From Amphiscolops sp. MND2022 (lineage: Eukaryota): a stretch of DNA of 64,000 bases. Shown here one piece after another: positions 20,857 through 55,106 of this stretch (the stretch's first letter is position 1; every line of letters begins with the position of its first letter). The stretch is taken from assembly GCA_964187785.1 (NCBI GenBank), contig OZ076409.1, positions 63,056,001 through 63,120,000 of the forward strand, read 5' to 3'. A program made the position numbers and the translations under genes. The notes under the pieces were generated by a model. The model had not been told where the DNA came from. It saw only the letters and a list, made by a program, of their open reading frames with translations, and made no database searches.

Positions 20857-20874
20857 ATCCCTCTGTGGTCGCCA
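20857..20874 (-). promoter_or_regulatory. Element A primer-binding site (tRNA-Arg-like)
   Basis: Minus strand TGGCGACCACAGAGGGAT, identical to the element B PBS, 15 nt from the LTR end. Confidence 0.85.
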
Positions 20875-20889
20875 AAAAATGAGGTCTCA

Positions 20890-32382: not shown

Positions 32383-32443
32383 TTGCTATTAGCACCGGAA
32401 GGTCGACCCCCACGAACACGTCGGCGAAGCACGGAATAAGTCA

Positions 32444-35348: not shown

Positions 35349-35425
35349 GTAAGTACCATAGTGCAAAGAAACGAAGTATTTTTTCACAAAAAATATAACA
35401 AGACGCCCGCTGAGGAGCGGGATAT

Positions 35426-36160
35426 TGTAGCGACTACCTATCGAGTGCACGATTTCGAAAATTTCGATGAAAATTTCGTTCAAGGGACTATATCTCCTCT
35501 ACTAAAGAGTCATATTCCGCCAGACGGCAGCGTGTCTTTACTCAAGTACCTGTCCACGGAATTGAAGAGGATTTGAGCAAGAGACTCGAAAGAGACCCCA
35601 ACCGAACGAGAAGATTGCAGAAAAACACGGCCACTATCAGAAAAAGACTCAAATTTCTGCCAAAACGGACTGAACTTTGTTCTAACCAGTGCTTTCTTCA
35701 GCGAAGCGTTACAAGACGCTGTGATTACCAAAAATGAGTCAATTAGCTTGACCAAGCATCCGTGCTTGTGTCCCCGGCTAATTGCTGCCTCAAAAGTGCT
35801 AATTATGTAGTAATTTTCGTATTTTCTTGTTGTAACAGCTCGTGAGCTACTCATTTCAATCTCCTGTGTAACTTCGATAAAACTTGATTTTTCCTTTCCA
35901 CCACTTGCATTTTTTTAAAGGCTGTCTAAGTGTTGATTTCGAAGAAAAAGCGTAATGCGCACTACTGATAGCAATTACAGACTGGATCAGGCCGGCGAGC
36001 ACTTCACAAGAAGCGGAATCCTCCTCTGACGGGACAGTTTTTACCCGATAGAGGCAAAATGAGCTCATGGTCATGGGCGCCTGTCCCGGGCAAATACCCA
36101 TATCATGTGTTCCTCTAACTCTTATGGTTACGGCGACAATGGTGAGAGCTTGTCGTTACA
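35426..36160 (+). repeat. Element B 5' LTR
   Basis: No differences from 53918-54652 seen by eye. Confidence 0.97.
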
Positions 36161-36176
36161 TAGAGACATCATTTTT

Positions 36177-36194
36177 TGGCGACCACAGAGGGAT
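36177..36194 (+). promoter_or_regulatory. Element B primer-binding site (tRNA-Arg-like)
   Basis: TGGCGACCACAGAGGGAT, complementary to a ...GTGGTCGCCA tRNA 3' end of the kind found in animal tRNA-Arg(UCG); 16 nt from the LTR. Confidence 0.85.
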
Positions 36195-37433: not shown

Positions 37434-37592
37434 CCCATTCAGTGCTGAGAAAAGTGAAAAAACGCACTGAATTTGATCAATTTTCCACAAAACCGGACTG
37501 TCTCTGAGCTAGGGTCGGGTCATCGATTCCTGAACCCTAGCCAAAAAGTGGTTGCATTTTCGTAACCACCACCAAAATTAACGTTAGTGCCG
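37434..37592 (+). promoter_or_regulatory. Putative packaging/dimerisation signal shared with element A
   Basis: 157/159 identical to the reverse complement of 19459-19617; hairpin 37508-37541 with ATCGAT in the loop. Confidence 0.6.
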
Positions 37593-38550
37593 AAAATTTG
37601 GTGAACGTAACTTTCACCAAAATCGAGAAAAGTGCTCTAACGTTTCAACTTCAGAGGACTGTAAAACTACCGAAATAATCCAAAACTGAAGGACTGTCGG
37701 TGCCTCGTACTTAACGGGCACATCTATTCGAGGGTTTATTCTAGTATTACGAGTAGTGGGGCAACACGTAGATCCCATTTTTTCAACCCTACCACTTTTT
37801 GAGGTGACCCTCTTAGCCAATTTGTGAAGAAAGTAGCCTAAGATTGTTTTTCTTTATGAGTGTCGTCCAAGTAAGGTCGAAACCTCAAATAAGCGTCCGC
37901 GCTTTCTTTTGATGGTCTCACCGGCATTGTACACACTCATCGGCTGTAACTACAAAGTTTCGTGTCAATCCAACCGGTACTTGGTGAGAAAATAGAAAAA
38001 ACGTACCACTCAAAAAGCTGGGCATAGAGGGTGATTTTTCAAATTTTTCCCGAGTGATCCGAATACCTTAATTGAAAAACGAGGTTGAATTACAGTTCAT
38101 TTCTACCATTTGTACCAGATATTACGTTGTTTTGCAAATTTTGAGCCCGCCAGCTTTTTTTCAGTAGAGCACAATCTCGAAATAAGCATGACAATTGATG
38201 TATTTTGATGACTGAAGGTACCGAACGTCCGGATCAACCTAAATCTTGAAATAAAAACCCTAGCTTGGATTTAATTTTGCTATCGTGTAGTACACCTACC
38301 ACAAGGTCAGGTGGCCAATTTTCAAGTGTTTCCGACGATTAGACGTTGCGTTCGAGGGATCTTAGTCATTTCCAAAGAAATTTAAAAAACTCAAAAATTG
38401 TCTAAAAACCCAATTGTTTGCGAATCAGCTATTCCGTAAGCCCCAAACGCACGGTTTCCGGCCCCACACCACGGTATCAACACGCTGTGTAAGTTTCACG
38501 CCGGTACGACCCCTAGATCGATTTTTGACTTTTTCGAGACGTGCGAAATC

Positions 38551-40257
38551 ATGAAACCCAACAGTTTGCGTAACCTTTGGATTTCCATAACGAGAACATT
38601 AGGCCGCGCGAACACCCAGCGACGCTCTAATCATTCAAGAGGGGGGAGGAAGGACATCTCGCGATGCACTGAAACATCAAAGACACCAGATCCAACGGGG
38701 TGCGAGACAAACCTCAGTGCAATATCAGACTTGACCTCAGATCCCAAGGAGGAAGATTGGCCAACTGATGACAGTTTCATTATGGAACCCGATTTTTCAG
38801 ACCCTATGTCAGACGACGCATCGGAGGAATATCAAGCCAAGCCGGTTGCCAAGACTACCGATGATATCGGAGGTTCAGCAGACGAAACAGGAAGTCAGGC
38901 GCACACGTCCAAATGGTTACAAGAACTCACCAAAGTAGCCGTCACACCTTTCGGTACTGACGAAGCAGGAACATGGCCCAACTCCAACAGGACAAACGCT
39001 GAGGAAGAAACTGAAATGAGTTGCTTGAATGCCACTGGACAACTCAAAGCTCCCAGCGTGGCCAGCGAGAGCACTGCGAACACGGCAGAGATATTGCAGC
39101 AAATGTCCTATGTCGGGGGTATGAACTATGCCAAGACACGTCTTCAAGAAGCTACAGCCCCCCGAGCATCTGGGAAGGGTAAGCAAGTACGGCCTCCAGC
39201 CTTACTAGCACAGACTGGCACTACAGGACCTCATGGCGACTCGCGCTCATCCTCACCTTCATCAAAAGCTGCATCTGCCCGATCTTCAGCATATCGAGCC
39301 GTACATGAAGCAGCGAAAGCACGCAAAGCTCTGTTAGATGCCCAGATAGGCGTGAAGCAAGCTGCTTCACAACTGTCTGAGCGTAAAGCAAGATGCGACA
39401 GAGAGCATCAGTCAATAATGGAAGAGATAGAAGCCGTACAAACTGAACTGCGAACTTCGACTGAGCGACAAGCGCAAGGACATGAAATTCAGGCAGCTCG
39501 AATGGATGCCATGGGTTATCGAATGGCCGAAATAAAAGACATGGTGACCGAAAGAGAGGTGCGCATGGAAGCTCAACTGCAAGAGGTATGTTCACAGATA
39601 CAAGCAATGGGCACCATGTTGAAAAATATCCAACCTCAACCCGCACCAGTAAGCAACACTATCAAAGAATTGCTGCAAGACACTAATATATCACTGCCAA
39701 AACCCATGAAAAGCGTCTCCCTCAAACCAAAAGAGAGTGTGACGATTTCGACAAACCCATCTGGCTCTAAACAACACTTGGCTAGGTACGCGCCCTTGCC
39801 ACAAACTCTGGTCTCAAATGGAGAAGCTGCGTCAACATCGACGAAATTTATCCCATCTGCGGTATCAACAAAAAATATTCCACCCACAACCAAAACTCAC
39901 AAGAAAGAACCAACATGCGAGGTGATAACTATCGACACTTCAAGCATGGGTATTAGCGACCTGCGAGAGCCCACACGCGCAAACATGCTAACCGAAGTCA
40001 CTAGCACCTTCCAAACAGCAAATGCAACTTTGGGAGAATCAGCTGCAGAATTCCAAACCGCGAACGACGAATTACCCTCGGGCAACCCATGCGCTAGCAG
40101 TACTCGACGCCGAGAAGTGACTCTCCCCGAGAACACTCTGTCAACTCAACGCGAGGCAGCAGTATCCCGCCACCAGCTATCAGCGAAGAAACGCCTATAT
40201 CACCGGAGCAACTCAGGTTTACCGAGGCAATATCTAAAGCCATGTCCAAGGAACTAG
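38551..40257 (+). CDS. Element B ORF1 (568 aa): low-complexity/coiled-coil protein, probably the N-terminal part of Gag
   Basis: Long ORF after the leader with a central heptad-rich helix (ARKALLDAQIG...IQAMGTML); overlaps ORF2 in the -1 frame. Confidence 0.75.
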   Translation: MKPNSLRNLWISITRTLGRANTQRRSNHSRGGRKDISRCTETSKTPDPTGCETNLSAISDLTSDPKEEDWPTDDSFIMEPDFSDPMSDDASEEYQAKPVAKTTDDIGGSADETGSQAHTSKWLQELTKVAVTPFGTDEAGTWPNSNRTNAEEETEMSCLNATGQLKAPSVASESTANTAEILQQMSYVGGMNYAKTRLQEATAPRASGKGKQVRPPALLAQTGTTGPHGDSRSSSPSSKAASARSSAYRAVHEAAKARKALLDAQIGVKQAASQLSERKARCDREHQSIMEEIEAVQTELRTSTERQAQGHEIQAARMDAMGYRMAEIKDMVTEREVRMEAQLQEVCSQIQAMGTMLKNIQPQPAPVSNTIKELLQDTNISLPKPMKSVSLKPKESVTISTNPSGSKQHLARYAPLPQTLVSNGEAASTSTKFIPSAVSTKNIPPTTKTHKKEPTCEVITIDTSSMGISDLREPTRANMLTEVTSTFQTANATLGESAAEFQTANDELPSGNPCASSTRRREVTLPENTLSTQREAAVSRHQLSAKKRLYHRSNSGLPRQYLKPCPRN

Positions 40258-43200
40258 CACCGCTGATTGCTAATCGAGACCAAACTAGGGTGCGCCCTAC
40301 GGTATACAAAGGCACTAAAGATGGTTCTGTCGATGGATGGCTCCCAGTGATGAAGCGATTTCTAGAAAGGGTGCATGCAAAATCCCCAAAAATCGACAGA
40401 GCCTGGGCTATCATCGACCACCTGGAAGGAGAGGCGAGAAATTATATTATCAACAAATCTGAACCTGAACGAGACGAGCCCGACAAGGTATTCTCTCTCT
40501 TGGCCAGCAGATTTGGAACCGGTGGGAATCGCATGCACGTAAGGCAAACCTTCATGTCTCGTGTCCAACAGGAAAAAGAAGATTGGATGCAATTCCTGGA
40601 CGCATTAGAAGGTCTGCGCACCCAAGGTTTCCCAGATGAGCCTATCACTACACGTCGTTATGAGATCCTGCAACGTTTTATAGATGGTGTCAATGATCCG
40701 ACGCTGCGACAAGAGTTGGCCGTGGTATACGCTGCAGAGGCATATCTGACCGAACCACCAACTGTAGAATCCCTAAGGTTCACCACGAGACAATTGCAAC
40801 GGCATCGCCCAAACACGTCAAAACCTTACGACCCAAGGTATGCAATGAGATCGAGGCCTCATCCTTTCGTGCCAGGAAAATTGGTTCATCCAGCACCAGG
40901 CCTACCGCAAAACGTACTACCTCCTAACCAAGGACAACGAGAGGCTAAACCCCAAATGGCTCCACCAGCCCCTGCATCAGTAAAACAGGCTCCTGCACAA
41001 CAGCAACCAGCGAGAGTGGTTCCCCAAGGAGCATGCTTCAACTGTGGGCTACCAGGTCACTTTGCAAGGGAATGCCCAAGTCGAGACCTAGCAAGGAAAC
41101 CAGCGGCTCGCGCTGCACCTGAAGAGCGAGTAAACTTATGTGAGAATAATGTGGCCTCTGCATGTTCTGGCCCCGTATTCTGTGTAAATTGTGGCATGAC
41201 TGAACACTCTGCATCACAATGCCAAAATGTTCCAGTACATGAGGATTTGGCCTACAGCCTCTGGGCTGAACAGCCACCTGCTTCTCAAACAATGAGCGAC
41301 AGTGAAATGGTACTTATGCTTCGTCCTGCTGAAACCGCTCATGTGGCAACGCCCCTTACCGTCACATGTGGCAAGATTCAAATCCAGACGAACCCGGAGC
41401 CAACTACTTTTGATCCCTCGGGACGCACTATCATGTCTGTCCGATTACTATTGGCGATTGAGAGGGAAACCCGCCCAGAACTCACCATAGACGCCCTGAT
41501 AGACGAGATAACCGCAAACGAGAATTGCCGACAATTGACCCTGCCCCAACCGGAAGAATGGCAGGTAAAAGGTGTCACTTCGACGTATCATGCCTATTCT
41601 CCGATTCCAGTCAAAGTTTGCATAGATGGTGTTGACATGCGTTTTGGTGCCACTATCATTACTGACGCATTTCCTCCTGGAATCTGCTTGGGACCACAGG
41701 AGCTGCGCTGCTATAACATTGATGCTCAAGAACCAACTGGTGAAGCGAGAATCGATGAGCGTGCGTCGCTCGTAGTTTCATTCGTGGTTCCCGATGCTGC
41801 TCCCGTGCCATTACGTGGTCTGATAGACACTGGATCAGGAGTGTCCATCCTCACCTTCTCAGCCTACAATCGAGTCGCTGTGCGCACTGGGACACTCTTA
41901 CGACCTTATGGTATTGACTTGTATGCCGCGAATGGGAAAACGATCAAAACTTTTGGTCTAGCGGAGAAAGTCAAGTTCCAATTGGGAGGCTACGAACTGG
42001 AAACTAACTTCGTGGTAGTTGACGACGCCATGGGAGTGGAAGACTTCCTCCTGGGCAGAAACTTCCTAAGAGCTTATCAAGTCTTGGTGGATCTAACCGC
42101 GATGAAGGTCATTGTCCGAGCTCCGTCTGAACCAGTGTGGTACCATGCCCACACACAAGTAAGTAACGAATCACTCAATTCGTCGGTAGCGATTGCACAG
42201 GACGTAGTGTTGCAACCTTTTGAACGCGCAATACTACGCGCTAAACTGCTTGTAGACAACTTAGAACCTTTCATATTTCGAACCGTGCTAATCAATTTCC
42301 AAACACCTAACCGAATGTTAAAAAACGCCATCTTTTTAGAGGACACCGTGGCGACCGTGGGGGAGACTGGCTTCCTTTACGTCAGTTTAGGAAATCTTAC
42401 CAGCAACGTGCAGCGGATTAAAAAGGGCACCCTTTTAGGAACCGCGGTACCCGTAACGATGGTTCACAAAGCCATCCCCCAAATTGTCCCCGGACAATCA
42501 AGTGAAACTCAGCAGTCAAATGCAAATTATGTTTGTAAAGTTTACGAACAGATGAACCTTGACTCCTCTTCTGAATATAGTTCTTCATCTGAATTTGAGT
42601 TTTTGTCCTCTACCGAACCGTCAGAACTAGGCTTGTCCGAGCGCGAAGTAAAAAAACGAACCGATCCGGCGTTAATGGCTCCGATACCGGGCCCGGAAGC
42701 ACAACTCGACGAAGTGCGCGGTTTGTGGGGATCGACCGCCAGCGACACGCTTAGTAAACTTTTGAATGAATTTGATGATTTGTTTATGAAATTCAAAGCC
42801 GATATTGGTAAGTGTAAAATCGCCAAGCACCCGGTGGAAGTAGAGCCAGGGGCTGTACCCCACCGTGAAGGTGCAAGACGAATGTCGCCTGACAAGGCAG
42901 AACGTGCAAACCAAGAAGTCCGTGACCTGCTAGCTTTGGGAATGATACAGCCTTCTCTATCCCCTTGGGCGAGTGGAATCGTCATGGTCAAAAAGAAGAG
43001 TGGTGAATTGCGATTCTGTTGTGACTTTCGACCACTTAATGAAGTGACCATCAAAGACGCTTATCCCTTGCCACGTATCGATGAAAGTCTATCCAGATTG
43101 GGCAAAGCCAAAATCTATACTAGTATTGACTTGGCATGGGCATTCTGGCAAATTCCTGTCCGAAAAGCAGATCGTCAAAAGACTGCCTTCGCTTGTGAAC

Positions 43201-46200
43201 TTGGGTTATTTGAGTGGCGGCGTATGCCTTTTGGTATGTGTAACGCATCAGCAACATTTCAACGGGCAATAGCGCGAGCGCTACAAAGAATAGTGAACCG
43301 TGAAGGAAGTATGGTTATGGCCTACATCGATGACATTGTGATTGCTACCGAGACCATCGAGGATCACATGGATAGACTACGCGAAGTATTCCAATGCCTG
43401 CGTGAGGCCGGGTTCAAAATGAGAGTCTCCAAGTGTGACTTCATGAAATCGGAGATCAAATATTTGGGCCGGGTCGTATCCGCAGATGGTATCAAGCCAG
43501 ATCCAAAAGCTGTCACCAAGCTGAAAGAATGGGATATCCCGCGAACCAAAACTGAATTGCAAAGTTTCTTGGGTTTTGCCAACTACTATCGGGATTTTAT
43601 CCCATGGCATGCAAAACTAGTTGCCCCTTTACACGCGATAACGGGAGGAGCCTCTTCATTTTTATGGGGGGAGGAGCAGCAGCGAGCCTTCAACAGCATC
43701 AAAGTGGCACTAATGGAAGCCACCGCTCTGGCGCAACCTGACACTGAAGGCGAATTTGTTCTCGACACGGATGCTAGTGGTGTAGCTATATCGGGTATTC
43801 TGCACCAATGGCAAGGACCACCTGAGAGTCGCAAACTGCGACCGATTGTATTCGGAAGCAAAAAATTAACTGCTACGCAAGCAAAGTATGGAGCCCCAAA
43901 ATTGGAAATGTATGCTGCATACTATTTCATCTTGAAAAACCACAGTTACCTCTGTCCACGAAAATTCACACTGAGGGTAGATAATCAGGCCCTATCCTGG
44001 CTAAAAACATATTCGATGGATCAGGCGATTATCGGTCGATGGATTATGGCTCTTGAAAAATATCACTTCAGCATTGAGCATCGACCCAGAACGCAACATC
44101 GAAATGCTGATGGTCTTAGCAAACGAACAAATGATTACAAAAAACACGAAAAGCAACTAAAAGGCTTACCCGCAATTGCAGACAAATGGGATTTCCTGTC
44201 ACAGGAGGAATATAACAAACTCCCGCTAGCCCCATGGTTCGACGTCCACGGACGCGTGATACCAAATCATCCAGAATTGCCTGCACACTTGCAGAGGTTG
44301 GGTAGCCAATGTTCACCCGAGACCACAGTTGCCGCTCTCTCGCGAAAGAGCGGAGGAAGCAAACGAAATGCAACCATACGCGAGGAAGCCATGAGAGCGC
44401 CTCTACCTACATTGCCAAAACCAGAATTGACACTGCCCGCCGAACTTTATCCAGAATATCCTGAGGATTGGTTAGAACTGACCGAGGAATATCAACGAGA
44501 CTATCTACTCCCCACGCATGCTGCTAACGTACCATCAAGAACCACTTACCCACTAATGGAAAAGCAAGCAACTAGCACTGCACCAGAGCACGTAAAACAA
44601 GCCGCGTTTGTGGTAAACAGCATATCAATGGAACTGCATGAACATGCTAACACAGTCCATGGATTGAAGGATCTACTACTAGCACAAAACCGTGACGTCC
44701 ATATATTGGCCATCAAGAAATTGGTAATGCAAGAATCAATAGATAATGACGTCTTTCCGGAAAATGTGCGCACCTTTGCCAAAAACTACCACAAACAGAA
44801 GAAGAACCTCCTACTGATAAACGCCAACGGGATTTTGTGTGTAAAATACTCCAAAACTCAAAGAGCTTTGCATGAACGCCCCTGTATGATAGTGATGCCA
44901 CAATTGTATCAGCATGAGATACTATTCAAGGCCCACGACGCGATGGGACATCAGGGCATCGCGAAAGTCTTGGCCAGAATTCAAGAGCGCCACACTTGGC
45001 CAGGCATCCGCCGCACCATTGGACAATACGTCAGTCAATGTATCACTTGTCAACAAGTACGCGACAAGCCTGGTGATGTACGCTTTCACTTGAAAAATAT
45101 CCAAAGCGGTTATTTCAACGAGCTAGTCCAATATGACCACATGAAAATTTGTCCCTCTGATGATGGTAACACAGGGATATTGGTTATTATCGATCATTTC
45201 TCTAAGCTCGCAGAAGCTGTGCCATGTAACCACGATGAGTACGATGCAGCGACCACTTCAAAGTTGTTGTTGCAGAAGTGGTTTGCCCGCCATGGAACGC
45301 CAACGAGGATGCAGTCAGACAATGCTCCCAATTTCACCGCGGCAGTATCTGCTGAGTTTATGAAAGCAGCCCAAGTGACCAAAGTAACCTCAACTGCTGG
45401 CCACCCCAGGACTCAAGGGTTGGTAGAACGACAAAACCGAACGCTACTCACCCTACTGCGTGTATTCTGCTCTAGACGAATGCGTGACTGGGATCAGTAC
45501 CTAGATGAAGTTATGGGTGCATACAACTCCACACGTCATGCCACTACTGGATTTTCCCCGTATATGCTGACCAGAGGCATGGAAAAAGCTATACCCCTGA
45601 CTTTTTTGTATCCGGAATTTGCAACTCAGTCATTCGAATCACACGAAGCCTATGTGGAACATGTGCTGGCTCGACAACAAGAGATTCATGACTTAGTCCG
45701 TCGCAACACGCATCAAGCCCAACAACGACAAAAATTGAAGTACGACAGAGCAATTCGTGCTAAGGCCTACGAAGTGGGCGAACCTGTTTGGGTATTCTGC
45801 CGATACATTCCTCAAAAGGGATCTCCCAAATTGATGAGAGCGTGGCGTGGTCCTCACAAGGTAGCACGAGTGCTACAAGAGGGACGTGTTTACATACTTG
45901 ACACTGGGCAGAAAGTGCATTTCGAACGATTGAAACCGCATCATGGTGGTCCAACAGAATGGGCAGCTGTTCCTGCGCATAACGGCGAGGTTGCTATTAT
46001 CATGGACCCTGATCCAGAACAATCCCATGAGGAGGTGAGAGACGATGCTTCACAACCTTCTTACCGTGCAGAGGAACCAATTTCGGAAGCCAGTGATGCC
46101 TCTTTGCCTTCTCGACAAAGACATTGGATGGACACACGGTTACGCACACACATGCGCGCAGGTGGCAGCCGCCTACATTATCAACAATTTGGCTACTCTT

Positions 46201-48311
46201 CGACTGAGTCTGACGATGAACGTTCTGATGTACTCCTATCGAGTGCTCAAACAAATCCTGACGAAAGTGTCATCTTGCCATCACAAGCAGACGAGCCTGC
46301 GCCTATTCCCGAAATGCCAATATCACCACTACCTGCTATGGAGGCTCTATTTTCAGAGAATGAAGCAGTACCAGACGCATTAGATGTCGCCCCGAATCCT
46401 AATATCCACGTACCCACCGAAAGTGCCGCCACTTCTTTGACCGGTACATCCGCCCCATTATTGACAAATCCATCTCTTACGGATATGTTGAGTAACTTTC
46501 CCATTTGGCCCCTAATCGATGACAATGACCTCAACCCAACCCTGGACGACGACGGTGCCGATACACCAACGACCAATAACGAAAAGGGATCAATTCCCCC
46601 TGTAACAAATCCCATCAACAATGATGCAGCTACTACCACGAAACTCCCCAATGCTCCTAGAGGGCGTGGACCCCGGGGACGTCCGCCAGGCAGAGCAAGG
46701 CCGCGAGCCTCGCTACCACGTGGTCACCAACGGAGAGGTGCTATTAGAGGCACTCGCAAAAGAGGCCGTCCCAGAGGTAGACCTCCTCGTACAACGCACG
46801 CCAGACCTAACACTCCTACCCATATTCGTAACACTCCATCAATGGACACTGACTCTTCTGCCCCTAGCGCGGCGGTTACCTCAGATCAGGCAGCACCACC
46901 AGAATCGACCAACGCTCATTATGGACTGCGACGCAATCGTATTCCCAGATATCGTTGCGGAACATGTGGCCTACGAAACTGCGAATGTAACTACATGGTC
47001 CACGCGGGCTTCCCAATCGAATCCCAGGGAGTCCTACTAGCACGTGAACAGGAGAAACCACTTCCGAGCGGAATGGTTGACCGTTTGATTATTCGAGCCG
47101 AGAAAACCTACACTGGGCTACAACGCAGTGACACTCCATATCCCGTGGACTATATCCTATCCAAAATGAAGGATTCTACGATAGCAAGGGCTCCGTGCCC
47201 AAGGTTCAAGGAGTGGACCTATGATCTTGTTGGTTTGGAGTTCACCTTACCCATCACTGTTCCCCCTTTGCCTACAAATATTGCTTTTGGTCCTTTCAAC
47301 TATGAGCGAGAGCCTATCCAAATGATACGCTGTATTCCTGCTGACCTCTTGTACGACAAATACAACGTCACAGCAAAACCAGGAGACGTTTATCAGCCTA
47401 CAAGCAACTGGTGGCTACTAGTTACGGCCAAACAAGCATCCGACTTGGTTCATCCCACTAACTTGAACACCTGTCTGGAGAGTTTGCGGACGATGGCCTC
47501 TCCTGATAAAATCACTTGTTTCCACACGATAGACCTATATCGTGGTAAAATTAAGTTTGAATGGTGGCTGGAACTTATTATAGCAGTTTTATCAAATTTC
47601 TCACGAATCAGATTCCTGGACGAATGGACACACTCATTTCCTAGTCCTGTATCCCTCCAATCGGCCCTGCACGCACTGGATACATGGTCCAGGGCTAACA
47701 TTGATAATCAATCATTGCCGCGATCTGTATGGCAAGATTTGGGCGCAATCAAGGGCCTCCTCCCGAATGCATGTGACGATGCTCTTTCCAAGGACCCCGG
47801 ACGAGAGTTAGTGTACCATGGAGCCGCGAGACCTCAATTGGTTGACTATGTGCAGTATGCCAATACGGACTTCCTGCAGACTCCCCATCATATCGTTTTA
47901 TGTTGTCCTGCAAATCTGGAAACTAGTTCTGCCTCTCTTCGTTACGTCATTCGTGAGCATGGTGCAGATGCAATCTTTCAACTTCGACCGGAGGTTGGCA
48001 ATATTGTAACGCTACCCACGTCTTTGATAGACGGCCATCCTCAGACTATCCACCTTTTAATCACACGAGCTACACCTCGCTGCCCTATGCTCGCTGATAT
48101 TCTTTTTGGATGTCTTGATCATTTGAAAACGTTACTCGAGCGCTTGGAGGCGATAGAAGTACACTTTGCCATCGTTGATCCTGAACGCCCAATACGTAAT
48201 CTTTTTGATTTGTATGCCTGTTTGATGGACGTATTCGCCGACACCCCCCTGACCGTCGTTCTTCACGATCGCGTTTACGTATCTATTGCAAGCGTCGCTA
48301 GCTTTCCGTAA
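40242..48311 (+). CDS. gag-pol: Element B Gag-Pol polyprotein (2689 aa from ATG; frame open from 40098)
   Basis: Capsid-like region; CCHC knuckles at 41034 and 41181; protease LIDTGSG (41820); RT with MPFG and YIDD (43323); RNase H (LDTDAS...ELE-like KLEM...NADGLS); integrase HHCC (44934-45050), DDE core and WRGPHKV; ~780-aa extension. Confidence 0.97.
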   Translation: MSKELAPLIANRDQTRVRPTVYKGTKDGSVDGWLPVMKRFLERVHAKSPKIDRAWAIIDHLEGEARNYIINKSEPERDEPDKVFSLLASRFGTGGNRMHVRQTFMSRVQQEKEDWMQFLDALEGLRTQGFPDEPITTRRYEILQRFIDGVNDPTLRQELAVVYAAEAYLTEPPTVESLRFTTRQLQRHRPNTSKPYDPRYAMRSRPHPFVPGKLVHPAPGLPQNVLPPNQGQREAKPQMAPPAPASVKQAPAQQQPARVVPQGACFNCGLPGHFARECPSRDLARKPAARAAPEERVNLCENNVASACSGPVFCVNCGMTEHSASQCQNVPVHEDLAYSLWAEQPPASQTMSDSEMVLMLRPAETAHVATPLTVTCGKIQIQTNPEPTTFDPSGRTIMSVRLLLAIERETRPELTIDALIDEITANENCRQLTLPQPEEWQVKGVTSTYHAYSPIPVKVCIDGVDMRFGATIITDAFPPGICLGPQELRCYNIDAQEPTGEARIDERASLVVSFVVPDAAPVPLRGLIDTGSGVSILTFSAYNRVAVRTGTLLRPYGIDLYAANGKTIKTFGLAEKVKFQLGGYELETNFVVVDDAMGVEDFLLGRNFLRAYQVLVDLTAMKVIVRAPSEPVWYHAHTQVSNESLNSSVAIAQDVVLQPFERAILRAKLLVDNLEPFIFRTVLINFQTPNRMLKNAIFLEDTVATVGETGFLYVSLGNLTSNVQRIKKGTLLGTAVPVTMVHKAIPQIVPGQSSETQQSNANYVCKVYEQMNLDSSSEYSSSSEFEFLSSTEPSELGLSEREVKKRTDPALMAPIPGPEAQLDEVRGLWGSTASDTLSKLLNEFDDLFMKFKADIGKCKIAKHPVEVEPGAVPHREGARRMSPDKAERANQEVRDLLALGMIQPSLSPWASGIVMVKKKSGELRFCCDFRPLNEVTIKDAYPLPRIDESLSRLGKAKIYTSIDLAWAFWQIPVRKADRQKTAFACELGLFEWRRMPFGMCNASATFQRAIARALQRIVNREGSMVMAYIDDIVIATETIEDHMDRLREVFQCLREAGFKMRVSKCDFMKSEIKYLGRVVSADGIKPDPKAVTKLKEWDIPRTKTELQSFLGFANYYRDFIPWHAKLVAPLHAITGGASSFLWGEEQQRAFNSIKVALMEATALAQPDTEGEFVLDTDASGVAISGILHQWQGPPESRKLRPIVFGSKKLTATQAKYGAPKLEMYAAYYFILKNHSYLCPRKFTLRVDNQALSWLKTYSMDQAIIGRWIMALEKYHFSIEHRPRTQHRNADGLSKRTNDYKKHEKQLKGLPAIADKWDFLSQEEYNKLPLAPWFDVHGRVIPNHPELPAHLQRLGSQCSPETTVAALSRKSGGSKRNATIREEAMRAPLPTLPKPELTLPAELYPEYPEDWLELTEEYQRDYLLPTHAANVPSRTTYPLMEKQATSTAPEHVKQAAFVVNSISMELHEHANTVHGLKDLLLAQNRDVHILAIKKLVMQESIDNDVFPENVRTFAKNYHKQKKNLLLINANGILCVKYSKTQRALHERPCMIVMPQLYQHEILFKAHDAMGHQGIAKVLARIQERHTWPGIRRTIGQYVSQCITCQQVRDKPGDVRFHLKNIQSGYFNELVQYDHMKICPSDDGNTGILVIIDHFSKLAEAVPCNHDEYDAATTSKLLLQKWFARHGTPTRMQSDNAPNFTAAVSAEFMKAAQVTKVTSTAGHPRTQGLVERQNRTLLTLLRVFCSRRMRDWDQYLDEVMGAYNSTRHATTGFSPYMLTRGMEKAIPLTFLYPEFATQSFESHEAYVEHVLARQQEIHDLVRRNTHQAQQRQKLKYDRAIRAKAYEVGEPVWVFCRYIPQKGSPKLMRAWRGPHKVARVLQEGRVYILDTGQKVHFERLKPHHGGPTEWAAVPAHNGEVAIIMDPDPEQSHEEVRDDASQPSYRAEEPISEASDASLPSRQRHWMDTRLRTHMRAGGSRLHYQQFGYSSTESDDERSDVLLSSAQTNPDESVILPSQADEPAPIPEMPISPLPAMEALFSENEAVPDALDVAPNPNIHVPTESAATSLTGTSAPLLTNPSLTDMLSNFPIWPLIDDNDLNPTLDDDGADTPTTNNEKGSIPPVTNPINNDAATTTKLPNAPRGRGPRGRPPGRARPRASLPRGHQRRGAIRGTRKRGRPRGRPPRTTHARPNTPTHIRNTPSMDTDSSAPSAAVTSDQAAPPESTNAHYGLRRNRIPRYRCGTCGLRNCECNYMVHAGFPIESQGVLLAREQEKPLPSGMVDRLIIRAEKTYTGLQRSDTPYPVDYILSKMKDSTIARAPCPRFKEWTYDLVGLEFTLPITVPPLPTNIAFGPFNYEREPIQMIRCIPADLLYDKYNVTAKPGDVYQPTSNWWLLVTAKQASDLVHPTNLNTCLESLRTMASPDKITCFHTIDLYRGKIKFEWWLELIIAVLSNFSRIRFLDEWTHSFPSPVSLQSALHALDTWSRANIDNQSLPRSVWQDLGAIKGLLPNACDDALSKDPGRELVYHGAARPQLVDYVQYANTDFLQTPHHIVLCCPANLETSSASLRYVIREHGADAIFQLRPEVGNIVTLPTSLIDGHPQTIHLLITRATPRCPMLADILFGCLDHLKTLLERLEAIEVHFAIVDPERPIRNLFDLYACLMDVFADTPLTVVLHDRVYVSIASVASFP

Positions 48312-48539
48312 AACTTTCGTTTGTCCGCTTTCTTTTTTTTGTTTTTCGTTTTTTTTGTCCGCTCGATTAAGTTTAGTGAATCGATACGAAGTTTATTTGA
48401 GACTATTACGTTATCTTTTTCTTTAATGTTAATGTGTAACATTCTATTACTTTCCCTGGTATTACCCTTAAATGACCTATGGTGTTACCCTACTATCAAG
48501 TGTGCTACAATCGACCTACGCTCTTTCAGAACTGTCGTC

Positions 48540-51500
48540 ATGAACCAAGATAATGATAGAAGCAACAACGTCCCGCCGAGGTCTACAGACAACTCTCCTG
48601 CCTTGGGGCAACGCGTCTATGACACTGCGCGTGTCCAACGCACCCCACAAATTGCCTTTATTCGAGACAGACTCGACCAAGGTCTGTCGCCAGCTGCAGT
48701 GGCCGGGGTAGCAGCAATAATTGCCCAGATGGAATCACAATTGCAAGCCCCAATGCTAACGATATCAATTACCTCAGGGTTTCCTGGATTTCAACGATCC
48801 ATGACGTACCAAGATGGAGTGTGGCACGGCCATGATCTTACGCATCACTTCACAGATGATCGTGCGGCGATCTCGTATAGTCTTGCGAATGGCGGAGTCC
48901 ACCAGACTAGACCTTTACAGATCCCTTCTTGCCCGCCTCCACCTCCACCGCCACCTCCTGTACCAACACCACAAGCAGTAGTGCGCGCGCGCACTCCTGC
49001 TCCTATGGTGCCTAGCCTGCCCAATCAATCTATGGCGGAGCAAGCAGTCATTTCAGCGCTACAAGCAGTGGCTGCCAATCCCAATTACGATGACTTCATG
49101 CGATCCATGGAGCAGTGTTGGCCAGAGCTACGTCGAATTGCTCTGCCCACTGTCACTATTCGTAACGACAATGCGACTTCAACTGAAACACGTCAAGGTG
49201 TCATCACTATTCCCCACATCAATCCTCAGTCTGAACAGCCAGGACACTCCCGCACCGTGACTGTGGAACGCAGTCGTTCGCCTTCCCGCTCTTCTCAAAA
49301 GGGGGGAGGAGAGAGCCGCCCTGCCTCCAGAAAGCGCAACGACCCCTCCCCAACAAAGAAGACTCAACAACCATTGACTGCCCGTGACAGCCCCTCGAGC
49401 AAGCCACCACCCGACAAAAAGATTTCCAACGAGAAGGCCACAACCTCCAAAGCGCCAGACCAAACGAAGTCAAAAGTGTCGGAAGCATGCGTGCTTCCCT
49501 CACCCCAATCACAACCGGACGTGACAGGCGAGCAACAAGGACTGCCGCAACCACCATCCACGCAGTCTACAACACGCGAGTCGCTGGCTCAACGAGCGAC
49601 TCCTAAGCCCTCCACGTCAGGACAGCCACAATCGGAGCAAACTGTGGGTTATCAAGGCACCCCTGTATCCCAGCGAACTGTCAAGGACATAATGGGTGAT
49701 TACCCAGGGTTGAAAGTGACCAACAGTGGTCCAACTGGAACCCCACTCCGGAAACAGGCGATTCAACATCCAACTAAGAGGACCTTTACGAAACAGCCGA
49801 CGTACCTGAGCCCCATGCAGAACACAAAGGGCACATTGGTCACCAAGGATTCCCGACGTATCTGGGAATCGGCAGTTATAGTATCGCCCGAATGGCTATT
49901 TGAGAAAAACATGTGTCCTCCAAGTGACGAAGAGCACGCGAAACTGAAGAAGGCAAATGTACCCGTATTCATGAATCGTCCAATCCGCCCAGACCACACT
50001 CCTACCAATGAGCCGGCATGGCTAGGGAAGGCAATGAATATGCTGCCAAACGTGGATGACAATTACCTAGATGCCCTCAACGTTGACCTTCGTGGGCAAT
50101 TCGCCGATCGATATTTTCTCAACGCTGGAGAGACCTTTGAGATCAACCCACGGTACGCCCGTGATCTCGAAGCCCAGCTACCAATGCCAAAAGAAAGGTT
50201 GCAGCGTGCGCGCTTCGCCTTACTTATTGACTCAACATTCCTCAAGAATGTCCCCATCGACAACGTGTTGTCAGACGTGATGGTTTTTACTCTACCGCTG
50301 TCACGTATTCCCGAGATGGCCGAAGTGTTGGTCACCATGTTTGACCCTGAGATGACAGGAACCTTCAAAGAGCCACCTCCACGTAGAGTGATCATCAGCA
50401 ACGTTTTCGATCACATGGCCTGTGAAGGACTAATGGCCCAGATCGCGAACGTTGAGATTATGAATCCAAGTCCGGCTCAGCGAACAACGGTACGCAATGC
50501 AGCATTGAACATGGCCCGAGCCATGGAGAAAGCCCAAAACATCTTGAAAGACAAACTCAAGGTGCCAGCCCTGTTCGTGACACCCCCAGGTTTTTGCCAA
50601 TGGCCCCCCGCCTTGCAGAGATTCATATACATGGTGACAGAAGTTTGCAAGTGCAGAGAAATAGACTTTGCGATCTGCGCGCCCAATATGCGGATTAGCT
50701 CCAATGACTTTCGCCCCTCCTGGCTGTCCTACATGGGGTACATTGCCTCAGTGTCTAAAGTGCTACAGTCAGTAGAGAAAACAGGGAACGCGCAGCTGAC
50801 AATCGACGATGCCATTTACTTTGATCACGGCACTCGCATGGGCTTGTTGGTGTTCAACAAGGACGGAGAAAGGCGAGTCCCAGAGCCCAGTACGGCCGAA
50901 TGCGAGGCAATCCGCCTGAATAACTGGATAGAGCGCGCGCGCTCATCCGGTGGAAAGACTTGTATCAAAACCGATCTTGCAGAAGTCACTGCCACAATGA
51001 GCAAAGTCCCCAGCGACCGAGAAGTAGAACGAGCCATCCCGCGAGTTCAATTTGCCAAGGACCTCACAATCGATCAATTATCAGTGGGAATGAAGTACAT
51101 TGCTGCTAAATTGACGAGCGAAACTCAGGCTGAAATCCAAGCCTTCAGCAGCACCTACGACGCCTGGTACCAGCGGCTACAAACTACCACCGTAGCAGAC
51201 ATTGCAAAAGAGCTTGGGATGTCAACCGACCAGTTTGCCATCTGTTTGGGATTGGGTTGGAGTCCCGATGTTATTCGAGTCGAGTTCGATTTAGAGGAGA
51301 GTTGGTTGATCGAAATCAGCGAGATTATCGGTACCGTGCAGGTGAACGAACTCTTTGCACTGATGCTCACTTTCGGGCAGAAACGCTTTGTAGCTGGCCC
51401 AATGATGATATTGACTGACCTGGTTACCGAGTGTAATCTGGAATGGCTATTTTCATATCTGGTGATTGCACGAGGGAATATCTCAGGTCTAACCGCCCTA

Positions 51501-52907
51501 GCCAAGCTGTTGCAACGGAAAGACGCTCAGGATTATCCCGCTCACCTGGAGCGTATGACAACTTCATTGTATCACTGGATGTATTGCAGTCTGGTCTTTG
51601 CCTCGGGACTCTTCGTGGGGGTGGATAAGCACCAACCGTTATATGATGGACGTCAGCTAGTGACCGAGGTAGCTGGATTTTTGACACCCAACCAGCTGGC
51701 AGATTTCACTTTGGCTGAAGTCGAAGATCTTATACCGGTGTTAGCACCCGTGCTAACTCCGATATTTGGCCCAACCGGGATACTCCGATACCCCACCAAG
51801 CCTCTGAGACTGGCCTCGGAGACGTTAACGGTATCCATCCTAACTTATCTGAAGAACGTAAAACCACACAACTATCAACAGATGCTTGAACGTGGGCTGT
51901 TTCTGCTAGTACCACGTATGTATACCACAATAAAGAATGAGACACAGCAAGACGAAAACCTGGCCGGTATTCTCAAAGCCCGAACAAAGAAGGCGTGCCC
52001 TTTACCTCGCGAATACGGCCCGGTGAATTGGTATAATTCTCCCCTAGACCACCTCGGAATCCCACAGCGATTCAATTGGAGTTTCGCACACCTCAGGAAG
52101 TACGTGACCGAGTGTGTGCAAACCATGGGCGGTCACACGAATCAGGAGTACAATTTCCAAATGATTAAGCTTCCAGCCAGGTACTGGCGAGGACCCATCG
52201 GTTATATCCGGGCCAAGCCAATCAGTATGGTCGAGAAGGGCTTTGATGAGCAGTATGCCTATCGCGACCACTACAAACTTGGCGTGTGGATGTCAAGAAC
52301 CCTGGAGGAGCGCCAAGGACGCCTAAGAGGTTTAATCATCCCCCCACTGACAATGCCTTTTTGGAATCCAGAGGCGAGGGTTACTATGGGAAGCGACATG
52401 CCAGCGGAGACTTGCTACCACGTCATGGAATTGCTAAGTGATCCCCTCGGACCCGAATGGGAAGCCTCTAGGCAAATCATAGAGCATGCGAATAGGGACA
52501 ACTGGTCCAGAGCCTGCGGGCTCTGGGGCCGACCTGATCTACGCCCGAAACTCAGTGCGAAACAGAAACGACCCATTGCCACCCGCAATAGACCGCTGGA
52601 TCTACCGCACTTGTTTAATGCTAGTAGACTGGATGTACAGATCCCAATCTCCACATCAACCACAAGTTCTGCCAATGTTAGCGGCTCAGCCAATGCAGCG
52701 CAAGAACATTCGCCAGAAGCATCAACTCCGGTAGCCGCAGAAAATGGCCCTGGTGGCTCAAACACGGCTCCTAGGACCCATGAAACTGCCAGCGCAGAAC
52801 CAAAGCCAGTCCTGCGAGGAGGAAATACGCGAAGAGGATCTCTGTCTGAACTGCAACCAAAGGCAGACGTTTCCCCCAGAGCGCGTCACTCCTCTGCCAC
52901 CCAGTAA
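48540..52907 (+). CDS. Element B ORF3 (~1455 aa) of unknown function with a degenerate SGNH/GDSL-like domain
   Basis: Intact frame from 48321 to 52907 between pol and the PPT; probable start ATG 48540 (MNQDNDR), where composition changes, 10 nt after a CTCTTTCAG acceptor. Confidence 0.85.
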   Translation: MNQDNDRSNNVPPRSTDNSPALGQRVYDTARVQRTPQIAFIRDRLDQGLSPAAVAGVAAIIAQMESQLQAPMLTISITSGFPGFQRSMTYQDGVWHGHDLTHHFTDDRAAISYSLANGGVHQTRPLQIPSCPPPPPPPPPVPTPQAVVRARTPAPMVPSLPNQSMAEQAVISALQAVAANPNYDDFMRSMEQCWPELRRIALPTVTIRNDNATSTETRQGVITIPHINPQSEQPGHSRTVTVERSRSPSRSSQKGGGESRPASRKRNDPSPTKKTQQPLTARDSPSSKPPPDKKISNEKATTSKAPDQTKSKVSEACVLPSPQSQPDVTGEQQGLPQPPSTQSTTRESLAQRATPKPSTSGQPQSEQTVGYQGTPVSQRTVKDIMGDYPGLKVTNSGPTGTPLRKQAIQHPTKRTFTKQPTYLSPMQNTKGTLVTKDSRRIWESAVIVSPEWLFEKNMCPPSDEEHAKLKKANVPVFMNRPIRPDHTPTNEPAWLGKAMNMLPNVDDNYLDALNVDLRGQFADRYFLNAGETFEINPRYARDLEAQLPMPKERLQRARFALLIDSTFLKNVPIDNVLSDVMVFTLPLSRIPEMAEVLVTMFDPEMTGTFKEPPPRRVIISNVFDHMACEGLMAQIANVEIMNPSPAQRTTVRNAALNMARAMEKAQNILKDKLKVPALFVTPPGFCQWPPALQRFIYMVTEVCKCREIDFAICAPNMRISSNDFRPSWLSYMGYIASVSKVLQSVEKTGNAQLTIDDAIYFDHGTRMGLLVFNKDGERRVPEPSTAECEAIRLNNWIERARSSGGKTCIKTDLAEVTATMSKVPSDREVERAIPRVQFAKDLTIDQLSVGMKYIAAKLTSETQAEIQAFSSTYDAWYQRLQTTTVADIAKELGMSTDQFAICLGLGWSPDVIRVEFDLEESWLIEISEIIGTVQVNELFALMLTFGQKRFVAGPMMILTDLVTECNLEWLFSYLVIARGNISGLTALAKLLQRKDAQDYPAHLERMTTSLYHWMYCSLVFASGLFVGVDKHQPLYDGRQLVTEVAGFLTPNQLADFTLAEVEDLIPVLAPVLTPIFGPTGILRYPTKPLRLASETLTVSILTYLKNVKPHNYQQMLERGLFLLVPRMYTTIKNETQQDENLAGILKARTKKACPLPREYGPVNWYNSPLDHLGIPQRFNWSFAHLRKYVTECVQTMGGHTNQEYNFQMIKLPARYWRGPIGYIRAKPISMVEKGFDEQYAYRDHYKLGVWMSRTLEERQGRLRGLIIPPLTMPFWNPEARVTMGSDMPAETCYHVMELLSDPLGPEWEASRQIIEHANRDNWSRACGLWGRPDLRPKLSAKQKRPIATRNRPLDLPHLFNASRLDVQIPISTSTTSSANVSGSANAAQEHSPEASTPVAAENGPGGSNTAPRTHETASAEPKPVLRGGNTRRGSLSELQPKADVSPRARHSSATQ

Positions 52908-53880
52908 AACAGAACTAACTTTGTCGTCATTCAATTTCCAACTTCAATAGTCTTATGCTAGATAAAATTTTGCGAAATCTCATGGTTTCAATCTCTGTTG
53001 TTGCTAAGCTTCGATTATGGAAATGCCAATTGGTCATGGGTAAAAATCTCCGAGTGGAGATGAAGCCCCCGGGCTTCATCTTCCTTGTTATTCCGTTTTG
53101 GGACCGGCAACCCAACCATGAAACTGCGTTCTTGCCTTGCCTTAGTTAGATGCAATATTCAATTTGCAATTTGTGTTTGCAGTTAGTGCTTTTTCATGCT
53201 ACTTCATGCTACATGTGGATGCGCTGTGCGCACTCCGTGCTCTAAATTTTCGGTGCTATTACACCCTTTTAGTTGCTAGTTATCGTTTACACTGTTGCCA
53301 CTGTCGAAAAAGATAAAAAGAAAAGATAAAGGAAAAGGAAACAAGGAGGGAGAGATGAGAAATGAATAGAATAAAAAGATTGATGAACCTCGACCATTGT
53401 TTTTCTTGAGCTGCCTGACAGGATCGAGAGTAAGTCTCGCAAAAGAAATTTTAAATTGACCGTACTAATTAATTGATTTTATGGCAACTGCTTACCAAAA
53501 GAACTTTTATCAAACGCCAAGCAGTGCGAAGCTCCCGAGCTTCGGAGAATATGTTTCGAACAGTCATGTGATGGTCGTTGACCTTAAAACAAGTTTTAAC
53601 GCTAACGGCAAATAAAAACTTTTTTTGAATGGCCGAAAAGAAATTTTAACGCCTGAATTGCTCACGACAGGCTACAAAAAGCAATGACTTTGCCGTATAA
53701 GATTTGTGTACAAAGTTGTATTGATTTGATCAAAATGCAGCAACGCTGGGTCAAAAATACTTCCACGAGGCCAATTTGACGATGTCTCGATGAACCGCCC
53801 AGCGCTATTTGATGTGCACTCTACCTCCTCAGTGGGACACAGATGACTCTGGGTACAGACTCAATGACGCCAACCCACAC

Positions 53881-53917
53881 TTGACGGGGACGTCAAGACT
53901 AGACCCCGGGGAGTGTA
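53881..53917 (+). promoter_or_regulatory. Element B PPT region
   Basis: TTGACGGGGACGTCAA hairpin then CCCCGGGGAGTGTA immediately before the 3' LTR. Confidence 0.8.
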
Positions 53918-54652
53918 TGTAGCGACTACCTATCGAGTGCACGATTTCGAAAATTTCGATGAAAATTTCGTTCAAGGGACTATATCTCCTCTACTAAAGA
54001 GTCATATTCCGCCAGACGGCAGCGTGTCTTTACTCAAGTACCTGTCCACGGAATTGAAGAGGATTTGAGCAAGAGACTCGAAAGAGACCCCAACCGAACG
54101 AGAAGATTGCAGAAAAACACGGCCACTATCAGAAAAAGACTCAAATTTCTGCCAAAACGGACTGAACTTTGTTCTAACCAGTGCTTTCTTCAGCGAAGCG
54201 TTACAAGACGCTGTGATTACCAAAAATGAGTCAATTAGCTTGACCAAGCATCCGTGCTTGTGTCCCCGGCTAATTGCTGCCTCAAAAGTGCTAATTATGT
54301 AGTAATTTTCGTATTTTCTTGTTGTAACAGCTCGTGAGCTACTCATTTCAATCTCCTGTGTAACTTCGATAAAACTTGATTTTTCCTTTCCACCACTTGC
54401 ATTTTTTTAAAGGCTGTCTAAGTGTTGATTTCGAAGAAAAAGCGTAATGCGCACTACTGATAGCAATTACAGACTGGATCAGGCCGGCGAGCACTTCACA
54501 AGAAGCGGAATCCTCCTCTGACGGGACAGTTTTTACCCGATAGAGGCAAAATGAGCTCATGGTCATGGGCGCCTGTCCCGGGCAAATACCCATATCATGT
54601 GTTCCTCTAACTCTTATGGTTACGGCGACAATGGTGAGAGCTTGTCGTTACA
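53918..54652 (+). repeat. Element B 3' LTR
   Basis: 735-bp direct repeat of 35426-36160. Confidence 0.97.
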
Positions 54653-55106
54653 TATTTTCCGCCCCGAACTGTTCTACAACTACATAAATTTGAGGCTCAA
54701 GAATAACTAATGCACTATAAAAACGCTGAGAAGTTCGAAGAAAAGAAAGCTTCGATTCATCTTGTCCATTTTTCTAATTCGCGGTGTCTCAAAAAATGGC
54801 AAAAATTGCATAAAAATGTTTAAAAATGAGAAATTTGGGAATTTTTGTCATTTTCGGGGTCATTTTGTCATTAAGGGGTCATTTTGTCATTAAGGGGTCA
54901 TTTTCGTCATTTTCGTCATTTTTTAAAAAAACTTCAAAAATCTCTACAAATACATATCGCACGAAGCTAAATTTATGTGGGTTGAATTCTATGGGTAACA
55001 CCCTTAAATTTAAATATAAATAAAATCTTGGCAAATTTTGTAAAAAAAAAAAAACCCGTTTGATTTAAATATTTTCCTTTCCCATATGAAATATGGGCGG
55101 AAAATA
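54653..55106. repeat. Remainder of a dispersed repeat (Helentron/DINE-like) interrupted by element B
   Basis: Rejoined site reads hairpin CCCGCTGAGGAGCGGG + ATATTTTCCGCCC ... GGGCGGAAAATA; the distal half resembles 27240-27415. Confidence 0.55.

Follow-up and report, generated by a model that had tools for sequence, protein, structure and literature searches.

Tandem TARG1-like pseudo-macrodomains predicted at the Pol C-terminus of a Ty3/Gypsy element in Amphiscolops

What kind of protein ends the Pol product of a Ty3/Gypsy element in Amphiscolops sp. MND2022, how did it get there, and what might it do? A first-pass annotation of the window (the 64,000-nucleotide stretch of contig OZ076409.1 analysed here) had placed a tandem pair of TARG1/OARD1-like macrodomains on the integrase tail. 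The element is 19.2 kb long, with at least 119 near-identical copies in the genome; it is young, abundant, and recently active. Long terminal repeats (LTRs) with TG...CA ends, a primer-binding site, a purine tract, and the order protease, reverse transcriptase (RT), RNase H, integrase identify it as Ty3/Gypsy. Its main features are as follows.

35426..36160, forward strand: 5' LTR of 735 nt, TGT...ACA, with the same sequence as the 3' LTR and preceded by TAT
36177..36193, forward strand: primer-binding site, separated from the LTR by 16 nt and complementary to the 3' end of the host tRNA-Arg(TCG)
38440..40257, forward strand: N-terminal part of gag-pol, in another frame than the remainder in the window copy
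40098..48311, forward strand: main gag-pol frame, 2737 aa, with CCHC knuckle, protease, RT, RNase H, integrase, and long tail
42987-43469, forward strand: RT, within the main frame
44898-45407, forward strand: integrase H2C2 and core, within the main frame
48540..52907, forward strand: extra open reading frame (ORF) in the interval from pol to the 3' LTR, 1455 aa
53918..54652, forward strand: 3' LTR, with a short purine tract (GGGGAG) before it and TAT after it

The gag-pol frame of the window copy is broken within 40098-40257; many other copies encode a single frame of 3292 aa. The 1455-aa extra ORF has no significant match in Pfam, PHROG, or the PDB, and it is ruled out as an obligatory cis partner of the macrodomain pair because a sister family (3116 aa) lacks it and keeps the pair.

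All ten motifs on which the macrodomain proposal was based fall between pol residues 2403 and 2723 of the 2737-aa frame (40098-48311). The C-terminal module of integrase ends at HFERLK (45918) and these motifs begin about 450 aa later; the placement on the integrase tail is borne out. The tail is organized as follows.

46650..46800, forward strand: low-complexity integrase tail with basic Gly-Arg-Pro (GRP) motifs, present in all five tandem-clade sequences displayed
46920..46988, forward strand: conserved Y-x-L-R motif, then a four-Cys motif
47100..47273, forward strand: conserved segment preceding domain A, under purifying selection, with no macrodomain similarity
47274..47624, forward strand: pseudo-macrodomain A, a shortened TARG1-type copy with Ala/Ser at the Lys84 position and the phosphate loop D-x-Y-R-G-K
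47625..47834, forward strand: conserved linker from A to B, two helices in the AlphaFold2 model
47835..48275, forward strand: pseudo-macrodomain B, predicted TARG1 fold, with Arg at the Lys84 position, the phosphate loop D-P-E-R-P, and the Asp20 position kept

The GRP motifs, which we take to be AT-hook-like, and the Y-x-L-R motif are kept across the tandem families; the single-domain sister elements have neither. The spacing of the latter (Y-x-x-R) resembles, at the level of sequence only, that of a chromatin-binding motif described for foamy-virus Gag (Y537/R540) in an extract of PMC6042332. As excerpted, PMC5053271 places a chromodomain at the integrase C-terminus of chromoviruses. Both kinds of Ty3/Gypsy integrase thus end in a folded domain, but here a 450-aa tail intervenes, a Pfam search found no Chromo match on it, and its end is predicted to fold as macrodomains.

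The tail is opaque to single-sequence methods: it matches nothing in Pfam, the PDB, or PHROGs, and folds with a pLDDT of 36. A profile of 140 rows gave six PDB matches, the top five being TARG1/C6orf130 chains at E values of just 0.14-0.19, and a Pfam search with the 140 homolog rows returned no Macro match. An AlphaFold2 model built from 150 rows has a mean pLDDT of 83.7, and in it the predicted fold of domain B is that of a TARG1-type macrodomain. TARG1 is the best Foldseek match (E 1.6e-8) and again the best on VIA re-ranking (Z 17.1, rmsd 2.0 Å over 137 residues) and in a wide VIA search (Z 15.6), with bacterial DarG at Z 14.6; the profile and AlphaFold2/Foldseek check proposed earlier for the tail therefore returned TARG1 chains at the top for B. 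In the ESM Atlas, the clusters that B matches at scores of 0.90-0.91 are unnamed; in one of them, 14% of the members carry Macro. Compared with human TARG1/OARD1/C6orf130 (PDB 4J5R, 4J5S, and 2L8R), it shares the fold and the Asp20 position but has 13% identity, replacements at Lys84, Asp125, and the GxG loop, and a tandem context fused to Pol.

Domain A is harder to see. Smith-Waterman comparison of single A and B sequences is at chance level (210 of 1000 shuffles equal or better), an A-centred profile has no PDB match, and the ESM Atlas gives no usable match for A. Profile alignment with hhalign is more telling: A scores 38.4 against B (maximum of 30 shuffles, 25.8), 38.8 against the single-domain sister sequences (shuffle maximum 18.7), and 25.1 against a 56-row TARG1-like profile (maximum of 40 shuffles, 16.4), although the probability in this last case is just 22%. 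The AlphaFold2 model gives A the strand and helix order of B minus one helix; the GD motif is also absent. A fold search of the whole model did not single A out because B fills the match lists, and the two tandem-macrodomain chains that span both domains do so with a large rmsd (for 4d86, 17.1 over 258 residues at Z 10.3). From profiles and predicted topology, a second TARG1-type copy in A is well supported, and a tandem TARG1-derived pair at the Pol C-terminus is very probable. The tandem arrangement of the first-pass annotation thus stands, whereas its start at 47310 does not: A begins about 36 nt earlier, at 47274.

The earlier reading had also noted a lost catalytic lysine and a missing IGCGLD loop, and both observations hold for both domains. 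The TARG1 pattern TKx(30,35)Px[IL]GxGxD, taken from the excerpted text of PMC6397177, occurs in 45 of 56 canonical rows and in none of the 150 family rows. The Lys84 position is Arg in B (45/48 rows) and Ala or Ser in A (59/61). At the positions of Gly121 and Gly123, B has Asp (36/38) and Glu (34/40), and A has Asp (57/59) and Tyr (52/59). The catalytic Asp125 position and the GxG loop, which binds pyrophosphate according to the same excerpt of PMC6397177, are replaced in A as in B. The lysine change alone proves nothing, since the TARG1-like SCO6735 is active with Gln there (PMC9967889, as excerpted). Taken together, these replacements make it most probable, judging from the aligned residues, that the pair is not a TARG1-type hydrolase.

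Loss of the site has not been followed by decay. Nei-Gojobori dN/dS values for unsaturated pairs are 0.04-0.15 in A and 0.02-0.23 in B, and the domain region is free of stops in 116 of 119 copies; both domains are under purifying selection. A had been described as the more decayed copy, which is contradicted by a pN lower than that of B in 7/7 pairs.

Relatives of the element suggest how the pair arose. A 99%-supported clade of the integrase tree holds intact-macrodomain, single-dead-macrodomain, and tandem elements; in the sister elements a single dead domain combines features of A and B, and more distant elements carry an intact TARG1-like domain. Inactivation before duplication is therefore likely, to judge by these sequences. 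The single dead domain bridges the profiles (canonical 98.9%, B 99.4%, and A 87.3%), and A, B, and the single domains fall on one side of a 96% branch. On the integrase tree one intact-macrodomain element (P0374) nests among these, and excluding it is disfavored at AU p 0.046; a single re-acquisition or tail swap must therefore be assumed. On its integrase tail the ancestor would have had an active TARG1-like eraser; this domain would then have lost the ADP-ribose site and gained a D-x-x-R loop, and after duplication the RGK part would have stayed in A and the DP part in B, the present pair presumably binding a ligand other than free ADP-ribose. The steps from enzyme to pseudo-enzyme and on to a tandem pseudo-enzyme can be traced within a recently active mobile element.

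Macrodomain capture itself is common on Gypsy Pol, in keeping with the earlier remark that macrodomains occur in retroelements; what is unusual is the dead tandem pair. Intact TARG1-like domains occupy three positions in Pol among several unrelated Gypsy families of this genome (L034-L059), and intact domains also occur in the elements P0278, P0374, and P0247; in some families the domain lies on the integrase tail. All of these differ in having a single domain with a mostly intact catalytic pattern. Fish epsilon-like ERVs likewise have macro-domain ORFs (Basta et al. 2009, as cited in an excerpt of PMC4977317), another capture by an LTR retroelement. A parallel in form is the coronavirus nsp3 SUD, whose tandem macrodomains have lost glycines and bind G-quadruplexes rather than ADP-ribose (PMC2674928, excerpted text). 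SUD-N and SUD-M are likewise two tandem macrodomains in a polyprotein with a lost glycine motif, but they belong to another macrodomain class and virus type, their ligands are known, and SUD chains match our model only at Z 6.7-7.4. A literature search, with most subscription journals and Repbase reports outside its scope, found no account of a Gypsy integrase whose macrodomain is dead or in tandem.

Catalytic residues are missing from predicted TARG1 folds, and the pair is therefore likely to be a repurposed binding module. What it binds can be answered only tentatively. The explanation we prefer, as a real possibility short of an even chance, is a non-catalytic module that, with the upstream basic motifs, would act as a tether between the integration complex and chromatin or a chromatin protein; a role of the pair in chromatin tethering or site choice is no better than tentative. 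The domains themselves carry a net charge of +1 to -8, neutral to acidic, which is unlike typical DNA binders. That the pair stays on integrase after processing is among the least certain points, and protease could cut the 450-aa linker between them. By analogy with SUD, the pair could instead be a non-catalytic pre-integration scaffold with element RNA or a host protein as its ligand, either in the particle or in the cytoplasm, and perhaps cleaved from integrase. Loss of glycines and a tandem build are shared with SUD (PMC2674928, in the same excerpt), SUD-containing chains are among the VIA matches (8yax spans both domains at Z 7.4, rmsd 20.3, 205 aligned), the chromosomal spread of copies is uniform, and the single-domain sisters lack the basic tether motifs; but the pair ends Pol, with conserved chromatin-type motifs upstream of it, and is kept where the extra ORF is absent. 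We consider the scaffold rather unlikely. Tethering in its fullest form, in which a captured eraser became a duplicated chromatin reader that takes over the chromodomain's job and, with a 3-bp-stagger integrase, steers away from other elements, is unlikely; if true, it would amount to an integration-targeting domain of a new class whose ancestral stages survive.

The first-pass annotation had favored an ADP-ribose reader or an antagonist of PARP-based defence. Such a reader or decoy, whose remodelled pocket would still accept ADP-ribose or an ADP-ribosylated target, is doubtful because the GxG loop is replaced in both domains by conserved residues that are bulky or acidic, D-P-E or D-x-Y in almost every row. 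Loop-1 glycine positions in B are N/Y/S and A, and in a viral macrodomain one Gly-to-Ser substitution is enough to abolish binding (PMC2674928, as excerpted); A, moreover, lacks a helix and the GD motif. In its favor, B keeps the adenine-contacting Asp20 (54/68 rows; this holds for B only), leaving room for nucleotide binding, and its lysine has become a conserved Arg. The intact TARG1-like Gypsy domains, together with other macrodomain genes in the host (L031-L033), suggest ADP-ribosylation as a pressure on retrotransposons; even so, this reading is distinctly unlikely. A conserved set of polar residues (Arg, Asp, Glu, Arg, and His) is new in B and, with the SCO6735 precedent, would allow a hydrolase of rewired chemistry with A as structural partner; with both catalytic positions and the substrate-binding loop changed, this is very improbable. 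Least credible of all is a passively carried relic: identity between families is 41-56% over the 403-aa region against 74-90% in RT, but the dN/dS values contradict decay, synonymous sites between families are saturated, and the region stays nearly free of stops. The domains are small and confidently predicted, so the ligand question is directly testable.

If the pair steers integration, it would count as a new targeting module. The insertion-site distribution had been raised earlier as a check. In a comparison of top-scoring loci with 20 hand-picked control regions, flanks are AT-richer (GC 0.357 vs 0.387 in 1-kb pieces, p 0.005) and none of 37 insertion sites lies within 1 kb of Gypsy pol, against 4 of 20 controls (Fisher p 0.012). 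Positional bias and a shared target were not borne out: copies occur on all 13 large contigs (KS p 0.44, with approximate lengths for some), there is no sign of clustering or of repeat-directed insertion, and 31 flanks show no fixed target sequence, tRNA-gene targeting, or single shared satellite. These genomic grounds for targeting by the pair are weak; the AT-hook-like motifs or the integrase core alone could explain the bias, and it is likewise least certain that the pair, rather than either of these, shifts insertions to AT-rich DNA outside Gypsy bodies.

Gypsy elements generally make target duplications of 4-6 bp, and those of the tandem clade fall below this range. The duplication is 3 bp (TAT at the window copy) in 9/9 LTR pairs and one solo LTR, and in 10/12 pairs of a sister family; a clade-wide 3-bp duplication suggests an unusual integration geometry. 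A literature search of the same scope as above found no report of 3-bp duplications in Gypsy elements, and the excerpt of PMC5053271 gives 4-6 bp for retroviruses. Among the intact-macrodomain Gypsy elements, the one with clear ends has a 5-bp duplication.

The tandem domains lie at the gag-pol end of a Ty3/Gypsy LTR retrotransposon whose two 735-nt LTRs are identical in sequence and whose Pfam domains run in the order CCHC, protease, reverse transcriptase (RT), RNase H and integrase:

35426-54652, Ty3/Gypsy LTR retrotransposon
40098-48311, main gag-pol frame
47274-47624, domain A, on the integrase tail
47835-48275, domain B, on the integrase tail
48540-52907, extra ORF of 1455 aa, between pol and the 3′ LTR

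The gag-pol of this copy is broken across two frames within 40098-40257. Searching the host genome (1.07 Gb) gave 4293 candidates, 119 of them scored; there are at least 119 copies, each 96-100% identical over the tail region, which is stop-free in 116 of the 119 scored, and many of these have a single 3292-aa gag-pol frame. Related families with frames of ~3000-3220 aa share the tail at 40-56% identity. The extra ORF has no significant match in the libraries searched; its core is ~42% identical across sister families, and it is missing from one (the 3116-aa family, named by its frame length), while in another it seems to be reduced. The primer site corresponds to host tRNA-Arg(TCG), for which the genome holds 254 pattern matches, and tRNA-Arg(TCG) from a contig C9 gene array (G000:C9:57537788-57576392 and onward, L190-L192; spacing ~174 nt) is the likely primer of the tandem-macrodomain clade. 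The site lies 16 nt past the 5′ LTR (spacer 36161-36176, with a T run at its end), and sister families have a comparable spacer; the ~2.3-kb leader before gag (36163-38439) contains no 150-aa frame.

Single-sequence searches and pairwise tests on the Pol tail gave no macrodomain signal. A search of 1.84 billion representatives (E up to 0.001) yielded 285 homologs, 150 of them listed; 139 of these were aligned with the query, and 10 genome family sequences were then added (150 rows). The first family profile had six matches in the PDB, the top five being TARG1 chains (E 0.14-0.19). The AlphaFold2 model built from the 150-row alignment (mean pLDDT 83.7) consists of two alpha/beta domains with a pair of helices connecting them. 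TARG1 is its top Foldseek match (E 1.6e-8), and VIA aligns model residues 249-391, corresponding to domain B, with TARG1 over 137 residues (Z 17.1, rmsd 2.0 Å); a wide VIA search also points to TARG1 for B. Fold-search lists are taken up by B, masking A, and an A-centred profile found zero PDB matches. By hhalign, A scores 38.4 against B (maximum of 30 shuffles 25.8; reversed 14.9), 38.8 against single-domain sister sequences (30 shuffles, maximum 18.7) and, weakly, 25.1 against a 56-row TARG1-like profile (40 shuffles, maximum 16.4; probability 22%). Its strand/helix order in the model is predicted to be that of B, minus the helix following the second strand. The first-pass annotation had proposed a TARG1-like macrodomain on the integrase tail with a second copy beside it; both are borne out, and A and B very probably form a tandem TARG1-type pair.

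TARG1 uses Lys84 and Asp125, holding the pyrophosphate with a GxG loop and the adenine with Asp20 (PMC6397177). Its numbering was carried to A and B via the profile match, the intact-domain match and the single-domain alignment. The published catalytic pattern is found in none of the 150 family rows, in 45 of 56 canonical rows and in six of eight intact domains of the host genome. In B, rows that align well locally show Arg at the Lys84 position (45/48) and D-P-E-R-P at Gly121-Asp125 (Asp 36/38, Glu 34/40, Arg 35/39); in A, they show Ala or Ser at the Lys84 position (59/61) and D-x-Y-R-G-K at the phosphate-loop stretch (Asp 57/59, Tyr 52/59), in agreement with the earlier claim that the lysine reads R or A and that the IGCGLD loop is gone. 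Gly123-to-Glu is the laboratory mutation of TARG1 that blocks ADP-ribose binding.

The same annotation had taken A for the more decayed copy, and this does not hold: A is further from TARG1 yet not decaying, because its pN is below that of B in all seven family pairs and its dN/dS is low (0.04-0.15, against 0.02-0.23 for B, in unsaturated pairs; synonymous sites are saturated in deeper ones). The flanking segments are likewise constrained.

That some retroelements carry macrodomains, as the annotation had noted, is evident in the host itself. A Pfam Macro search of its genome gave 129 matches, mostly inside long frames, and among 30 loci inspected were Gypsy families in which a TARG1-like domain follows integrase or stands between RNase H and integrase or between protease and RT; those at L034-L059 keep the catalytic Lys, at three different Pol positions. 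The one such domain tested matches TARG1 at E 5e-30. Macrodomain capture and tandem arrays are both not rare, since among the 120 longer homologs listed 22 also have RT, RNase H or integrase and 14 have two or three macrodomains.

Integrase relatives at 66-100% identity have both A and B in every record of sufficient length; those at ~45-53% have one dead domain with the loop D-P-N-R-G-K, which joins the DP of B with the RGK of A. This single-domain family has no close match in the host genome (best 31%), which puts the module in more than one species. Homolog P0278 (39% integrase identity) has an intact macrodomain, and the tandem, single-dead-domain and P0278 rows form one clade in a quick integrase tree of 38 selected rows (99% support). 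A domain tree of 32 rows places A, B and the single domains together on one side of a branch whose 96% support is possibly inflated by long branches. A simple step-by-step history is opposed by homolog P0374, which has an intact domain yet adjoins the single-domain families when integrases are compared by tree (its exclusion is marginally rejected, p-AU 0.046); its macrodomain groups with canonical ones, and therefore re-acquisition or a tail swap is needed. In P0415, a related element, the tail macrodomain has degenerated in another way, suggesting independent loss of the catalytic site.

The tandem-domain observation is real, and its best-supported reading is a dead, duplicated and maintained TARG1-type module. 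We tentatively favor a role in which the pair would tether the integration complex to chromatin. GRP motifs, together with a Y-x-L-R and a four-Cys motif, occur in the stretch separating integrase from A and are kept in the five sequences displayed and in most long-tailed tandem-clade rows; the likeness of Y-x-L-R to Y537 and R540 of foamy-virus Gag, which bind the nucleosome acidic patch (PMC6042332), is a lead only. A particle or RNA scaffold is a possible but less probable role. The closest functional parallel of the module is the coronavirus SUD, likewise two macrodomains without the glycine motif, which binds G-quadruplexes and not ADP-ribose (PMC2674928). An ADP-ribose decoy is rather unlikely: the Asp20 position is retained in B (54/68 locally well-aligned rows), but the pyrophosphate-binding loop is replaced in both domains. 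A rewired enzyme is improbable given the lost pattern, with the caution that SCO6735 has Gln at the Lys position yet is active (PMC9967889), and a relic, set beside the low dN/dS, is the least credible of all. L1 silencing is tied to ADP-ribosylation (PMC4695847). Fish ERVs have macro-domain ORFs on record (PMC4977317); the available text of three accounts of accessory or chromatin domains of transposons (PMC6338049, PMC5408684, 10.1101/2021.11.30.470311) does not mention a macrodomain, and no paper describing a dead tandem pair came up in our literature search.

For insertion-site distribution, proposed earlier as a check, no positional bias was found among the 112 copies on the 13 large contigs (KS p 0.44). 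Based on top-scoring loci only, flanking DNA in two families has more AT (GC 0.357 vs 0.387 in 20 hand-picked control regions), and 0/37 insertion sites vs 4/20 control regions lie within 1 kb of Gypsy pol (p 0.012), weak indications of a bias that do not point to the macrodomains in particular. Copy pairs less than 60 kb apart number 6 against 0.8 expected (C1, C4, C5, C9 and C12), and may reflect local hopping, duplication or an assembly effect.

The element ends in TGT...ACA with a 3-bp duplication (35423-35425 and 54653-54655). Its family (30 loci, L097-L126) has 3 bp in 9/9 pairs formed and one solo LTR, the 3116-aa family (L159-L188) in 10/12 pairs and one solo LTR (one also fits 4 bp), and two further families in 1/2 and 1/1 elements. 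These ends and duplications typify the whole tandem-macrodomain clade, the duplications being shorter than the 4-6 bp of retroviruses (PMC5053271); one distant family with an intact macrodomain has 5 bp.

A 7.5-kb element is 72-77% similar to the LTR end and 5′ region of the large one and has TTT on either side; it has no 200-aa frame and no tblastn match to the large element's proteins, and is likely a non-autonomous derivative. It and other repeats in the window are:

14108-21662, minus strand, 7.5-kb element; its 773-nt LTRs share 99% identity
2334-3246, tandem array of a 29-nt unit
12376-12837, repeat of a ~172-nt unit
31870-32385, near-perfect inverted repeat of 516 nt
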